Positions 30,388 to 39,809 of a stretch of 64,000 nt of DNA are shown here, in pieces. Positions within the stretch are counted from its first letter, which is position 1. Each line of letters begins with the position of its first letter. The translations under genes and the position numbers were made by a program. Under the pieces are notes generated by a model, which did no database searches, was not told the origin of the DNA, and was given only the letters and a program-made list of their open reading frames with translations. The stretch covers positions 13,836 to 77,835 of the forward strand of contig JBGSBR010000004.1 of the NCBI GenBank assembly GCA_041730495.1, in the 5' to 3' direction. The stretch comes from Weeksellaceae bacterium. GTDB lineage: Bacteria; Patescibacteriota; Microgenomatia; UBA1406; GWC2-37-13.

Positions 30388-33099
30388 ATGAAAGAAAAAC
30401 CATCCACCGTACCACTTGTTGCTGCATTTCTAGTTGCTGTAATCGGAATCCTTAGTCTAGTCGGATGGGCTACTTCAAATCCATATCTCATGCGAATGAT
30501 GCCTGAGCTGCGACCAATTAATCCTATGGCGGCAGTTGGATTGTGTGTCATAGCAGTAGGGTATGTGGCTATCTATATGCGTAATCAAAGTGTGCGATTT
30601 ATCATGGGTGGATTGACTTTATTGTTAGGTATATTGGCCATAACATCAGTACCAATTGACACTTTACTTTTTGCTGAGAAAATTCAAAGTATTGGAGAAC
30701 ATACAGCTATAGCTGATAGTGCGGCAATCTGTTTTATCTTCGCAGGAGTATTATTTCTTCTGCATAATCAGACCAATAAATCAATTACGTTTTTGAAGCA
30801 TATTCTGAATATATTGTTAGTAGTAATCTCATGGGTCAATATTTTTGGTCCGCTCTATGCATATGATTCGGTCTACGGATACTCATCAGACTTTGTGATG
30901 GCCATGCAGCTTGCGATAGCATTTAGTTTTGTAGCATATACCTCTATTTTTTTGGTACATCAGAAAAAAATTACGGCTATGTTGGGGACGGTAAATATAA
31001 TTGGATGGATGATTATTGCATCAATTATTTTTATCCAATCAGCCACTTATGGAGCGTGGCGTCAAGCTACTGATGATAATCGTGAAGATTCTGAAGAAGC
31101 ATTTGTGACTTACTCAGAAGGCATAAAAAATAATATGTTGGATAGAATCAGTATTTATGAAAATGCACTATACGGTTTTCGCGGTTTGTTTGAATCGAGT
31201 GATAGTGTCAGTCAGGATGAGTTTAATACGTATTTCGAGTCATTAGATTTGCTTAATCGTTATCCAGGTTTACGCACGATATCCTATACGTCTAAAGTCT
31301 CTGAAGCTGATCTGCCAGAGTTTATAGAGACTATAAGAGAGGATGATAGTATTCGGCCTGCAGGTAATCCTACATTTACTGTATCACCCAAAAATGACGT
31401 ACCCGTGCATTATATATCAACATATGCGTACACGACTTTGATCGGCAGTGCTTTACCTGGTCGAGATCTATCTACAGATAGTGCTCGTCTAGCAGCTTAT
31501 CAGCAAGCTGAACGCACGAATAAGTTTGCAGCATCAGATCCAATTACTATTACAGCAAATGGACCATTGCAAGAGATGAAAGGTTTCACCGTGACACTTC
31601 CGGTTTTTGATAAAAATACTGACAAAGTAGTTGGATTGATAAACTCTTTGTATGGCTATCCCCTTTTCTTTGATGAAGTAAAGAAAAATTTCAATTTTCG
31701 AGATAATACATATTTGAAGGTTGTTGATGTCAAGTCAGGTGATATTATCTATGAATTTGAAGAAAATCATACAGCTGAACATAAGCTGAAAAGTACACAG
31801 ATCTTAACTATCGCTGATCGGACATGGGAGATGACAGTCGAAGCGCCAGAAGATTATGGTATCAATATTAATCAAAAGAATTTACCACCCATTATTTTAT
31901 TAGGAGGTCAGTTATTTTCAGGTCTTATTGTCGTGATATTTATCATGTTGATACGTGGTCGTCAAGAAGCAGAAGAGCTTGTCAAGAAACGAACACAAGA
32001 ACTTGAAAAACTTATTCAAGCATTACCACTTGGTGTTTCTGTCGCTGAAGCGCCTTCTGGTAAACTGACTCTCATAAATGAAGCTGGAATAAATATATTA
32101 GGACGTGGGGTCGCACCTAATGCAACTAAAGAAGATTATGGACAAGCGTTTGATGTCCTAAGAATTGATGGTACTCCATATCCGCCCGCAGAGATGTCAC
32201 CGTCGATTGCCATGAAAACAGGAGAAATTACTACCAAAGATGATATTATAATCCGTCGACCGGATAAATCATTGATTCATCTAAAAGCGACGAGTGTACC
32301 GATTAAAGATAGCCAAGGATTAGTAGTAACTATAGTGAGTGTCTTTGAAGATGTGACTAAAGAAAAAGAGATTGATCGTATGAAAACTGAGTTTATATCT
32401 CTTGCTTCGCATCAACTCCGTACTCCTCTATCCGCGATGAAATGGTTCCTGGAGATGCTGATAGCTGGTGATGCCGGCAAACTTAACAAAGAGCAGCAAG
32501 AGTATGCACAAAATGTGTCTCAGGCGAATGAGCGTATGATTACTTTGGTAAATTCTCTTCTCAATATTTCACGTATCGAATCAGGCAGACTCATCGTAGA
32601 TCCACAACCGACTGATCTGAAAAAGCTTGCAGAGACGGTGATTACTGAACTACAGCCAAAAATCAAAGAAAAAGATATTTCGATGATTGTCAGTGTGCAC
32701 GATAAACTGAGTACAATTAATGTTGATCCGAAGCTCGTGACAGAGGTGTATACAAATCTACTTACGAATGCCATCAAGTACACTCCTAACAGTGGTGAGA
32801 TTTCACTCTTTATATCAGAAAAAAATGATGAGATCATAACTCAAGTGTCTGATACTGGTATGGGTATCCCGGAAGAAGAACATGATAAAATTTTCACTAA
32901 GTTTTACAGAGCATCCAATGTAGTGAAAGCTGTGCCAGAGGGTACAGGCTTAGGACTATACATGGTAAAATCAATTATAGAATCCTCAGGAGGTAAGCTG
33001 TGGTTTACTTCTGGTAAAGATAAAGGTACATCATTCTGGTTTAGTTTACCTAAAACTGGTATGCAAGCCAAGAAAGGTGAGGTCTCAATTAATAGTTAA
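30388..33099 (+). CDS. Sensor histidine kinase: polytopic N-terminus, CHASE-like extracytoplasmic domain, PAS, HisKA, HATPase
   Basis: About 7 N-terminal TM helices. The CHASE-like stretch is ENALYGFRGLFESSDSVSQDEFNTYFESLDLLNRYPGLRTISY...VHYISTYAY...GRDLSTDSARLAAYQQAERT. H-box SHQLRTPLS, N-box LLTNAIKYT, G-boxes DTGMGI and GTGLGL. Confidence 0.85.
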   Translation: MKEKPSTVPLVAAFLVAVIGILSLVGWATSNPYLMRMMPELRPINPMAAVGLCVIAVGYVAIYMRNQSVRFIMGGLTLLLGILAITSVPIDTLLFAEKIQSIGEHTAIADSAAICFIFAGVLFLLHNQTNKSITFLKHILNILLVVISWVNIFGPLYAYDSVYGYSSDFVMAMQLAIAFSFVAYTSIFLVHQKKITAMLGTVNIIGWMIIASIIFIQSATYGAWRQATDDNREDSEEAFVTYSEGIKNNMLDRISIYENALYGFRGLFESSDSVSQDEFNTYFESLDLLNRYPGLRTISYTSKVSEADLPEFIETIREDDSIRPAGNPTFTVSPKNDVPVHYISTYAYTTLIGSALPGRDLSTDSARLAAYQQAERTNKFAASDPITITANGPLQEMKGFTVTLPVFDKNTDKVVGLINSLYGYPLFFDEVKKNFNFRDNTYLKVVDVKSGDIIYEFEENHTAEHKLKSTQILTIADRTWEMTVEAPEDYGININQKNLPPIILLGGQLFSGLIVVIFIMLIRGRQEAEELVKKRTQELEKLIQALPLGVSVAEAPSGKLTLINEAGINILGRGVAPNATKEDYGQAFDVLRIDGTPYPPAEMSPSIAMKTGEITTKDDIIIRRPDKSLIHLKATSVPIKDSQGLVVTIVSVFEDVTKEKEIDRMKTEFISLASHQLRTPLSAMKWFLEMLIAGDAGKLNKEQQEYAQNVSQANERMITLVNSLLNISRIESGRLIVDPQPTDLKKLAETVITELQPKIKEKDISMIVSVHDKLSTINVDPKLVTEVYTNLLTNAIKYTPNSGEISLFISEKNDEIITQVSDTGMGIPEEEHDKIFTKFYRASNVVKAVPEGTGLGLYMVKSIIESSGGKLWFTSGKDKGTSFWFSLPKTGMQAKKGEVSINS

Positions 33100-33108
33100 G
33101 AGAATAAT

Positions 33109-33513
33109 ATGAATACAACACATACTGTGATGATCATCGAAGATGAAGATTTGTTATTACAAGCGATTAGCAAAAAATTTGAAAAAAACGGTGTTAAAAC
33201 TGTCGGTTGTACATCAAGTAGTCAAGCATTAGATTACCTCAAAAGCATGCCACAGCTTCCTGATGCAATCTGGCTTGATTATTACCTCAAAGATGGTAAT
33301 GGTCTGGAGTTTATGCAGCAAATGAAATCAGATCCGAAACTCGAAGCCATACCTGTAATTGTAGTCTCAAACTCAGCGAGTGATGACAAAGTAAAAACAT
33401 TGCTAGCACTTGGTGTCCAAAAGTATTTTTTGAAAGCTGAGCATCGTCTTGATGAGTTGATCGATGAACTTAAACAGTTTATTGATGAAGATAAAGCTAC
33501 TGCGAAACAGTAA
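33109..33513 (+). CDS. Stand-alone receiver (REC-only) response regulator
   Basis: IIEDEDLL, phospho-acceptor context AIWLDYYL, VVSN, K in the LKA motif. No output domain. Confidence 0.85.
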   Translation: MNTTHTVMIIEDEDLLLQAISKKFEKNGVKTVGCTSSSQALDYLKSMPQLPDAIWLDYYLKDGNGLEFMQQMKSDPKLEAIPVIVVSNSASDDKVKTLLALGVQKYFLKAEHRLDELIDELKQFIDEDKATAKQ

Positions 33514-38852: not shown

Positions 38853-39227
38853 TTAGCTGATATTAAGTATTCGTTTGATGTGAGCAATAATTTCTGTTAA
38901 TGGTGTATCAGATTTAACAATATATTCAGTAGCGCCCAGACTCAATGCTTTTTGCTTGTCTTCGACCTGACTGAGGTTGGTCGTAACGATGACTGGTGTA
39001 GTGTGTCCTAGTTTCTGTAACTCGGCGAGTACTGCGAAGCCATCGACATTTGGCATCATGAGATCTAGCAAAATCAGATCATACGGTGTTGCTTTAGCTT
39101 TATCTAGTGCTTCTTGGCCATCGTCGGCGGTTTCTGCGAGGAAACCTTCATGTGTGAGTTTGAGTTGTAGTGCAGTTGATAACGGTTTTTCGTCGTCTAC
39201 GACGAGTATTCGTTTTTGATCAGCCAT
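38853..39227 (-). CDS. Stand-alone receiver (REC-only) response regulator
   Basis: ILVVDDEKPL, LILLDLMMP, VIVTTN, K in the VKS motif. No output domain. Sits directly upstream of pilB. Confidence 0.9.
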   Translation of the reverse strand: MADQKRILVVDDEKPLSTALQLKLTHEGFLAETADDGQEALDKAKATPYDLILLDLMMPNVDGFAVLAELQKLGHTTPVIVTTNLSQVEDKQKALSLGATEYIVKSDTPLTEIIAHIKRILNIS

Positions 39228-39281
39228 AAAACAATACTAGAGATATTTCTTACATATTTCAAGCGAAGTTAGTGAGCAGAA

Positions 39282-39809
39282 TTATATGGCTAAATAGTTT
39301 ATCGCGTCTTCTGGTGTATCTGCAAAGTAGATAAGATCTTTTAGATCTCGATCGATAAAGCCATCAGCTTTCATTTTTTGAAGCTGCACTTTCAGTCCGT
39401 CATAAAAATTCAAGGTATTTAAGACAATAATCGGTTTATTGTGCATACCTTGTTTCTTGAGCTCAAGCACATCGGTAAGCTCATCAAGTGTGCCCACTCC
39501 TCCGACTAAAACAACGATAGCATCACTTCGGAGTAGAATAGTTGCTTTACGTTCACCGAGTGTTTTGGCGACAATCAGCTCATCAATAGTTTCTCGTGCT
39601 ACATCTTTATATACATCTATGGTGACGCCAATAAGTTTCCGGCCAGCAGTCTGTACGGCATCTGCGATAAGTTTCATAAGGCCTCTATCAGAGGCGCCCC
39701 ATACAAGATCATAGCCACTCAAGGCTAGTTTTTCAGCAAGGATGCATGCTGGATCCGTATATTTTTTATTTAAATCACTCGCTGAGCAAAAGATGCCGAT
39801 GTATTTCAT
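39282..39809 (-). CDS. LOG-family protein (cytokinin riboside 5'-monophosphate phosphoribohydrolase / TIGR00730-like)
   Basis: GGVGTLDELTDVLE corresponds to the PGGxGTxxE motif. GASDRGLMK corresponds to GGGxxGLMG, and the RK motif is ERKATIL. Confidence 0.8.
   Translation of the reverse strand: MKYIGIFCSASDLNKKYTDPACILAEKLALSGYDLVWGASDRGLMKLIADAVQTAGRKLIGVTIDVYKDVARETIDELIVAKTLGERKATILLRSDAIVVLVGGVGTLDELTDVLELKKQGMHNKPIIVLNTLNFYDGLKVQLQKMKADGFIDRDLKDLIYFADTPEDAINYLAI

Follow-up and report, generated by a model that had tools for sequence, protein, structure and literature searches.

A CHASE-domain histidine kinase and two receiver-only regulators at a minimal type IV pilus cassette of a Patescibacteriota genome, with a LOG gene alongside

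In Xanthomonas oryzae pv. oryzicola, the single-domain response regulator EmvR, which is phosphorylated by the sensor kinase of the two-component system ColS-ColR, binds the pilus assembly ATPase PilB and represses its activity (PMC11973254). In the Pil-Chp system of Pseudomonas and the Tax1 system of Synechocystis, activity or localization of the pilus motor is controlled by opposing regulators (PilG/PilH and PixG/PixH, respectively) once one kinase has phosphorylated them (PMC10519157, PMC11181946). Here we describe a locus in which parts of these kinds are combined with a CHASE sensor. It lies in a stretch of 64,000 nucleotides (below called the window; contig JBGSBR010000004.1, positions 13,836 to 77,835) of assembly GCA_041730495.1, a genome of the candidate phyla radiation (CPR) type with 1.34 Mb in 152 contigs. 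The locus comprises a CHASE-domain histidine kinase, two regulators that consist of a receiver (REC) domain only, here named REC1 and REC2, a type IV pilus operon and a gene of the LOG family. The original prediction, made from the DNA letters, had joined all of them into a possible cytokinin-like circuit with LOG as producer and the kinase as sensor. We consider it more probable (roughly 60%) that two unrelated units have come to stand side by side by rearrangement, namely an accessory pilus under two-component control, presumably exerted on PilB directly, and the LOG gene.

The window locus resembles EmvR and ColS-ColR in its layout of one kinase with two regulators and in the use of a single-domain regulator. 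However, EmvR is encoded by an orphan gene that is not located beside pilB, and the second regulator of its kinase, ColR, binds DNA, whereas both regulators of the window are without an output domain and the REC1 gene directly precedes pilB. With PilG/PilH and PixG/PixH the window shares two receiver-only (or receiver-plus-PATAN) regulators under one kinase. The Pil-Chp and Tax1 kinases are of the CheA type and are fed by methyl-accepting chemotaxis protein (MCP) receptors; the window kinase, in contrast, is a classical transmembrane HisKA kinase that carries a sensor itself, and the window cluster is free of genes for CheA, CheW and MCPs.

Pili of CPR bacteria have been described for the Saccharibacterium Nanosynbacter lyticus TM7x, whose T4P-1 and T4P-2 serve host binding and motility; response regulators, histidine kinases and two-component systems are not mentioned anywhere in that paper (PMC11623550). 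The TM7x pili and the window cassette are alike in being CPR pili, in the presence of several pilB paralogues and in an accessory system without a retraction ATPase, but the window cassette lacks pilMNO and is accompanied by a signaling triad. Its parts are all of known kinds (CHASE, HisKA kinase, REC-only regulator, minimal type IV or ComG-like cassette, and LOG). New is the arrangement by which REC-only proteins would control PilB, and a search for literature naming both the CHASE domain and type IV pili returned nothing related.

The kinase, the receivers and the pilus cassette

All open reading frames (ORFs) named by the original prediction are present at their coordinates, and its gene calls (LOG, REC-only regulator, pilB, pilC, five prepilins, convergent REC-only regulator and CHASE kinase) hold by Pfam, NCBIfam or motif. 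On the forward strand, the kinase gene (30388..33099, 903 aa) is directly followed by REC2 (33109..33513, 134 aa). The pilus operon on the reverse strand converges on this pair and consists of REC1 (38853..39227, 124 aa), pilB, pilC and five pilin genes. According to Pfam and an AlphaFold2 (AF2) model, the kinase is composed of a membrane domain with seven transmembrane helices (7TM; residues 1-221, 30388..31050, recognized from alignment invariants and model helices), a predicted extracytoplasmic CHASE domain (residues 222-505, 31051..31902; PF03924, profile and fold), an eighth transmembrane helix, and a transmitter (32047..33057) with PAS (residues 554-658), HisKA (665-733, including His675) and HATPase_c (780-890). 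The transmitter was assigned by sequence identities and by a tree to a kinase lineage that we call HK2.

About 18 orthologues of the sensor half of the kinase (residues 1-530) were found, each about 1050 aa long, with 34-39% identity and the order 7TM-CHASE-PAS-kinase. Ten of the orthologue loci (cited here by working numbers) extend past the kinase; with L027 and L150 being identical, they stand for nine distinct genomes. A REC-only gene is located next to the 7TM-CHASE kinase in all nine, and in eight of them (L025, L026, L027/L150, L143, L145, L146, L147 and L148) the same strand continues with pilB, pilC and four to six pilin-like genes. CHASE kinase, REC-only regulator and pilus operon thus form a recurrent module. 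Of the neighborhood of LOG, REC, pilB and CHASE kinase, whose conservation the original prediction had put up for testing, the kinase-REC-pilB part recurs, and LOG was not syntenic with it in any relative or orthologue context read. Two more genomes have a CHASE sensor at the 3′ end of such a cassette. In L034, REC, pilB, pilC and pilins are followed by a CHASE-PAS protein without a kinase part and then by a kinase and a REC; in L050, REC, pilB, pilC and further genes are followed by a CHASE-PAS kinase. A scan of metagenomes with the CHASE alignment yielded six loci, two of which were too short.

A triad of HK2-type kinase, REC2 and REC1 occurs in seven loci (L026, L029, L033, L059, L146, L148 and L168), with pilB directly after it in five. 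The window REC2 is 49-60% identical to the REC following the HK2-type kinases of these loci (59-60% where the HK2 is of the HAMP-PAS kind, in L026, L146 and L148), but only 27-29% identical to the RECs in front of pilB. REC1 shares 45-50% identity with the REC standing between kinase and pilB in L025, L026, L027, L143, L145 and L034. Judged by these identities, REC1 is the orthologue of the pilB-fronting REC and REC2 the usual neighbor of HK2. In both proteins the receiver domain (PF00072) is the only family above cut-off, with 62 bits for REC2 and 93 bits for REC1, as had been claimed; a Thioredoxin_9 match of REC2 stayed at 17.7 bits against a cut-off of 25. Their phospho-acceptor sets, read from the sequence, are intact and comprise D11, D12, D54, T82 and K104 in REC1, and E11, D12, D57, S87 and K109 in REC2.

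The link between such regulators and pili extends beyond CHASE kinases. We fetched 80 kinase loci by kinase-core patterns alone; they contain mostly generic kinases and served as an unselected sample, in which 17 loci have a pilB cassette within 10 kb. Pilus-linked kinases were found in two layouts, either before REC-pilB or after the pilins, and with diverse sensors (PAS only, HAMP-PAS, dCache-HAMP-PAS, FAD-binding-PAS and CHASE-PAS). Given this variety on pilus-linked kinases of CPR genomes, CHASE is one interchangeable input. Among relatives (the window's own locus, L111, excluded), a REC gene is located just upstream in 11 of 17 pilB-pilC loci and in none of 11 pilB-pilT loci. REC1-type genes directly before pilB show a recurring tight spacing of 7-26 nt. 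The original prediction had tied output-less regulators to PilB rather than to transcription, and the position of such genes directly before pilB in many genomes is in keeping with this. One pilus-linked kinase (L042, 8795-11038) carries an N-terminal FAD_binding_6 (oxidoreductase) domain before its PAS domains, possibly to feed a redox signal into a module of this type.

By its gene content the window cassette is a minimal type IV or ComG-like system with PilB, PilC and five pilins. The pilB gene (37181..38845, T2SSE 396 bits) is open to 38887; from the start context, its start is likely the ATG at 38845, 7 nt after the REC1 stop, and not the TTG at 38887. PilB reached no equivalog-level match (482 against 675 bits for PilB, 472 against 630 for GspE, and 247 against 300 for ComGA). 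It is 49-56% identical to PilB of kinase-linked cassettes, compared with 40-48% for PilB of genomes from the same family. The platform protein PilC (36077..37165) matches T2SSF with 148.6 bits. Between pilC and REC2 lie five small ORFs, each beginning with a prepilin motif of class III (G-F-(T/S/M)). These are (i) pilin 1 (35620..36069, 149 aa, SGFTMIE), a ComGD/GspH-like minor pilin with a sub-cut-off ComGD match of 36.9 bits; (ii) pilin 2 (34884..35642, 252 aa, SGFSLVE, N_methyl 22 bits); (iii) pilin 3 (34369..34881, 170 aa, SGFTLVE, N_methyl 20.9 bits); (iv) pilin 4 (33975..34391, 138 aa), whose prepilin-like N-terminus SGFMTLI is without Glu5 and which has no Pfam match; and (v) the GspG/ComGC-like pilin 5 (33497..33934, 145 aa, KGFTLIE, N_methyl 30.7 bits and an NCBIfam prepilin domain), the last gene of the operon and possibly the major pilin. 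Neither the retraction ATPase PilT nor PilMNO nor a prepilin peptidase is encoded between 33497 and 39227; a pilB-pilT pair is located elsewhere on the contig (C4:7353-9817). The 3′ ends of REC2 and pilin 5 overlap by 17 nt (33497-33513), and no terminator-like site lies between the convergent units.

In related cassettes, the product of the second gene of the pilin set is a large protein built of LVIVD repeats (beta-propeller), and its N-terminus resembles that of a pilin (L025 16750-18159; L027 16770-18158; L034 6253-8460; L143 15764-17197; L145 9545-10939). This protein is possibly a tip adhesin; the window has the 252-aa pilin 2 in its place.

A second cassette of the source genome (C1:98476-114822, i.e. 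L108 1977-18322) encodes an Hpt protein (137 aa), a REC-only regulator, PilB, PilC, pilins (one of 676 aa), a further REC-only regulator and a TrwB/HerA-like ATPase (784 aa), and a GAF histidine kinase with a REC-only regulator converges on it. It shows the same design as the window module. In total, the genome encodes four HisKA kinases, seven receivers (six of them output-less), three PilB-like ATPases and one PilT-like ATPase, and a single DNA-binding response regulator was found in it.

Ancestry of the kinase and control of the pilus motor

The two halves of the window kinase have different relatives. Residues 1-550 match only 7TM-CHASE kinases (16-56% identity per 50-residue block), whereas residues 651-903 are nearer to the HK2 lineage in every 50-residue block (46-78% against 32-66%). 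Identity of the dimerization and histidine phosphotransfer (DHp) and catalytic and ATP-binding (CA) domains is 80% and 56%, respectively, to the HK2 kinase of L026, compared with 45-65% and 33-43% to the CHASE-kinase orthologues. In a maximum-likelihood tree of DHp plus CA, the window kinase groups with HK2 kinases and two Levybacteria kinases (support 99/93) and stands outside the CHASE-kinase clade (100/100). By sequence ancestry it is thus a natural chimera, in which a 7TM sensor of the CHASE lineage is joined to a PAS-DHp-CA transmitter of the HK2 lineage. Its H-box reads SLASHQLRTP. The protein provides a clean natural example of sensor swapping and shows gene fusion to be a way in which kinase lineages exchange their sensors.

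A possible route to the window layout is offered by L146 and L148, where CHASE kinase, REC1a, HK2, REC2, REC1b, pilB and pilC stand in one row. A deletion would have joined the CHASE sensor to the HK2 transmitter, and an inversion of the block from REC1b to the pilins would have placed the kinase and REC2 convergent to pilins, pilC, pilB and REC1. Together, we infer, the two events would give exactly the arrangement of the window. LOG would then abut REC1 because it flanked the inverted cassette.

For the accessory pilus under two-component control, we propose the following sequence of events. An extracytoplasmic ligand would bind the CHASE domain and thereby change autophosphorylation at His675. 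Phosphate would pass to REC2 (Asp57) and REC1 (Asp54), of which REC1 would bind PilB and set its ATPase activity, and so pilus extension, and REC2 would act as antagonist, phosphate sink or relay. The partnership of kinase and receivers is supported by their conserved neighborhood.

Several observations weigh against this proposal and the rearrangement behind it. L144 has the kinase and REC without pilus genes; L168, from the same family, has CHASE-PAS, HK2, REC2 and REC1 but neither pilB nor any other pilus gene within 5 kb; and pilB was found within about 10 kb in none of eight more distant CHASE loci of the same class. The genes for kinase and REC2 run toward the pilus operon from the other strand and are not co-transcribed with it, and the transmitter of the window kinase differs from that accompanying REC1 in the simple loci of CHASE kinase, REC and pilB. 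The ends of the supposed inversion (about 33.5 and 39.25 kb) are not marked by a repeat; a search there for inverted repeats gave short, imperfect matches at chance level. No terminator was found between LOG and REC1, and read-through is possible. The substrate preference of LOG is not readable from its sequence. Finally, phosphotransfer, contact between REC1 and PilB and the identity of the ligand are steps that we infer, and the functional steps all rest on gene neighborhood.

Some of these points would also be expected if kinase and REC2 were an ordinary independent pair that had lost its connection to the pilus, REC1 were an orphan or served by another kinase, and the convergence were a leftover of ancestry. 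The replaced transmitter, the position of kinase and REC2 outside the pilus operon and the pilus-free sets of kinase and REC in L144 and L168 fit such independence, and the numbers of HisKA kinases and receivers in the genome mean that other partners exist. We nevertheless consider it unlikely. In the seven triad loci, REC2 and REC1 both come after a transmitter of the HK2 type, and the new transmitter is therefore of the type that normally accompanies REC1. Moreover, DHp helix 1 after the phospho-His is near-identical in both kinase lineages (SLASHQLRTPLSA[IM][NK]W[FY]xEML), and kinase, REC2 and REC1 are still within 9 kb of each other.

It appears less likely still that the receivers act on a transcription or anti-sigma partner or a cyclic di-GMP enzyme, or serve as intermediates of an Hpt relay, and that control of the pilus is indirect. 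In favor of such roles, the C1 cassette has an Hpt protein ahead of its REC-pilB pair, and with six of seven receivers output-less, REC-only proteins must serve several roles in this genome. Against them stand the recurring spacing of REC1-type genes directly before pilB, the published contacts of a REC-only protein with PilB (PMC11973254), and the finding of just one DNA-binding response regulator in the genome.

Direct action on PilB, if generalized, would amount to a CPR-wide sense-and-grab module, in which the sensor of the kinase can be exchanged (7TM-CHASE, CHASE-PAS, dCache-HAMP-PAS, FAD-PAS and PAS alone have been seen) and the kinase works through two receivers without output domains straight on the motor of a dedicated minimal pilus. 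In this broad form the idea is tentative, and we would rather doubt than assume it. If true, an ultra-small symbiont would put out a filament for adhesion or DNA uptake solely in the presence of a small molecule from its host or the environment. Pili are central to finding and holding the host in cultivated Saccharibacteria. The conserved set of kinase and REC-only regulator before pilB offers a testable handle on when episymbionts deploy their pili, and the variable sensors point to lineage-specific cues.

The CHASE domain and its relatives

The assignment of the predicted extracytoplasmic region as CHASE was confirmed by a PF03924 match over residues 272-423 (cut-off 25 bits), which scored 73.2 bits for the protein and 77 bits when the whole genome was scanned. 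An AF2 model of residues 222-505, based on 19 homologues, reached a predicted local distance difference test (pLDDT) value of 87.7 and a predicted template modeling score (pTM) of 0.81. Its top PDB matches in Foldseek were PcrK (6k62, TM 0.72-0.81) and AHK4 (3t4j/k/s, TM 0.64-0.76). A CHASE-family profile detected PcrK 6k62 at E = 5e-17 and did not find AHK4. The model of the full-length kinase had a pLDDT of 76.9 overall and 80-90 in the sensor, and a fold search with it returned kinase cores and phytochromes only. The CHASE domain is flanked by hydrophobic helices (about residues 204-225 and 505-527), and seven helices precede it; this topology was derived from the model helices. Since the top PDB matches hold no CHASE domain besides PcrK and AHK4, and the profile search yielded no other either, the match shows the fold and not the ligand.

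PcrK of the PcrK/PcrR system of Xanthomonas campestris is, like the window protein, a CHASE histidine kinase; it is the best match by sequence and by fold. In contrast to the window kinase, to which it is about 22% identical by profile and fold alignment, PcrK has no 7TM module and has a regulator of the phosphodiesterase type as its signaling target instead of REC-only proteins or pili, and its ligand isopentenyladenine (PMC7072313) is not transferable by homology to the window sensor. With AHK4/CRE1 of Arabidopsis (PDB 3t4j) the domain shares a long stalk helix and two PAS-like lobes, but identity is only 14-16%, and AHK4 is a hybrid kinase that feeds an Hpt relay.

The ligand pocket was compared through HMMER and hhalign alignments. 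AHK4 numbering was taken from the chain alignment, where index 153 is Thr278, and Phe281/Arg282 and Thr294 match Heyl et al. after an offset of +23; since AHK4 was represented by one partial sequence, hhalign gave a low probability. Asp262 of AHK4, which makes two hydrogen bonds to the adenine ring of cytokinins (Lomin et al. 2015, PMC4378623), aligns with Arg367, a residue invariant in 19 of 19 family members and also Arg in PcrK. Thr278 aligns with the invariant Ser383 and Thr294 with Thr403. The window sensor thus lacks the adenine-binding Asp of cytokinin receptors of the AHK4 type. A purine-type ligand for this CHASE variant, if there is one, would come from outside the cell and not from LOG.

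The 7TM domain contains motifs conserved among the orthologues (e.g. RPxNPMAAVGL and HTxLADSAAICF) and invariant residues N45, P46, H105 and S111; searched alone against Pfam at E = 10, it gave nothing credible. The kinase orthologues carry an additional N-terminal domain of about 110 aa, weakly STAS/SpoIIAA-like, which the window protein lacks. In two loci (L034 9953-13925; L168 6165-10353), a kinase-less CHASE-PAS protein (511 and 528 aa) directly precedes a histidine kinase encoded by another gene and equipped with a sensor region itself, which suggests sensing in trans.

Another CHASE kinase is encoded in the source genome at C5:17599-21649 (L109 3100-7150). This protein of 760 aa has the domain order CHASE-GAF-HisKA-HATPase, and its CHASE domain (200 bits) is much more canonical than that of the window kinase. 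A REC-only gene follows, and the only OmpR-type regulator of the genome is encoded nearby on the opposite strand, in a same-polarity order and not head-to-head.

The LOG gene and the cytokinin reading

The LOG gene (39282..39809, reverse strand) encodes, judging from profile matches, a nucleoside-5′-monophosphate phosphoribohydrolase of the TIGR00730 family. The original call, based on the motif GGVGTLDE, was borne out with 107.6 bits for PF03641 (cut-off 27) and 118 for TIGR00730 (cut-off 96.35); in full the motif reads VGGVGTLDE, with Val where PGGxGTxxE has Pro. Comparison with AtLOG3 and with the LOG of PDB 7w2i gave 92 bits each. In common with CgLOG, Rv1205 of Mycobacterium tuberculosis and AtLOG3, the protein belongs to the same family of hidden Markov models, retains the catalytic Arg and Glu and has the size of a dimeric type-I enzyme. 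The Arg of ERK and the final Glu of GGxGTxxE align with the catalytic residues whose roles have been established in CgLOG (PMC4979012). Four of five residues of the prenyl pocket, however, differ from CgLOG and AtLOG3 (Met to Leu, His to Gly, Glu to Asp, and Trp to Leu; PMC4979012). Against the cytokinin phosphoribohydrolase equivalog NF058542, the protein scored 100.9 bits, far under the cut-off of 300. Members of the family are near-universal (13 of 14 control genomes carry one), and PpnN of Escherichia coli is a further LOG/TIGR00730 phosphoribohydrolase. The clade of the window LOG has more than 500 proteins, mostly from CPR genomes; the best 120 homologues are 55-68% identical, and the named members among them are from Saccharimonadales, Levybacteria or Microgenomates. 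The window protein is predicted to be a catalytically intact nucleoside-5′-monophosphate N-glycosidase of this CPR-wide TIGR00730 clade.

The window's own GTDB family and order are too poor in LOG and CHASE for an analysis of synteny, and orthologues from a large protein collection were used instead. Contexts were read for the six closest orthologues (60-68% identity) on long contigs. In these, LOG is found (i) within carA-carB-pyrC-pyrD-LOG-SLOG-pyrF-pyrE (P0010 and P0007); (ii) directly before the CTP synthase gene pyrG (P0011); (iii) among phosphoribosyltransferases (P0009); (iv) between an aminotransferase and a ferrochelatase (P0005); and (v) after a PMT_2 glycosyltransferase (P0037). None of the six has pilB, a REC-only gene or a CHASE kinase nearby. 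Conversely, none of more than 25 homologous kinase or pilus loci contains LOG, and in a tblastn search with LOG against all fetched loci, the genome of the window was the only one to combine LOG with pilB. The original prediction had named a lack of synteny between LOG and pilus or kinase genes in relatives as speaking against it, and such synteny was absent from every orthologue or homologous locus read. Of 61 genomes searched (that of the window and 60 relatives), 7 have LOG (best identity 31%) and 5 have CHASE. Apart from the window's genome, the two occur together in one of the 60 relatives, on different contigs, and at the level of genomes their overlap is no more than chance would give. 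Four other genomes with CHASE loci (two of them pilus-linked) include one that has a LOG above cut-off, about 200 kb away.

Within the window, LOG was considered as a member of the pilus operon and rejected. The gaps from REC1 to pilin 5 range from -23 to +40 nt and are mostly 15 nt or less, compared with a LOG-REC1 spacer of 54 nt that contains a promoter-like site (TTGAAA-17-TAGTAT, 39234..39262, reverse strand; consensus match alone), with a -10 box ending 6 nt before the REC1 ATG at 39227; no homologous cassette includes LOG. LOG is the last gene of the row upstream, a neighbor of the pilus and kinase module but most likely unrelated to it. This row on the LOG strand (39841-41997) comprises a DUF917/S-Me-THD-like protein, ORFs of 82 and 158 aa and an ORF of 138 aa, none of which is found beside LOG orthologues elsewhere. 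From the gene contexts, LOG most likely serves nucleotide turnover or salvage.

The isopentenyltransferase of the genome is a tRNA enzyme of the MiaA type (C3:61650-62423). No dedicated adenylate isopentenyltransferase was found in the genome, and a match to PF01745 is the P-loop of the MiaA gene. That LOG frees a cytokinin-like base, the CHASE kinase senses it and the receivers relay the signal to the pilus motor is thus highly improbable: LOG and REC1 do adjoin on one strand without a predicted terminator, the LOG catalytic residues are intact, MiaA could provide tRNA-derived isopentenyladenine nucleotides, and both solved relatives of the CHASE fold bind cytokinins (PMC7072313), but the adjacency is unique to the window's genome, co-occurrence is rare, LOG falls far below the cytokinin equivalog cut-off and has orthologues in pyrimidine operons, a dedicated isopentenyltransferase was not found, the position of AHK4 Asp262 is an invariant Arg, sensors of pilus-linked kinases are interchangeable, and PcrK and AHK4 are the sole solved CHASE structures, so that the match is silent on the ligand. 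The presence of LOG and CHASE together should not be over-read as cytokinin signaling. A LOG gene of a soil Saccharibacterium was earlier read as cytokinin-related from annotation alone (PMC6031116); for this clade, contexts in nucleotide metabolism argue against such a reading.

In Saccharimonadales metagenome-assembled genomes (L011/L012 5934-9605; L019 5422-9158), LOG is accompanied by its SLOG paralogue LDcluster4 (191 aa), and both genes are located in the operon for de novo UMP synthesis, between pyrD and pyrF.

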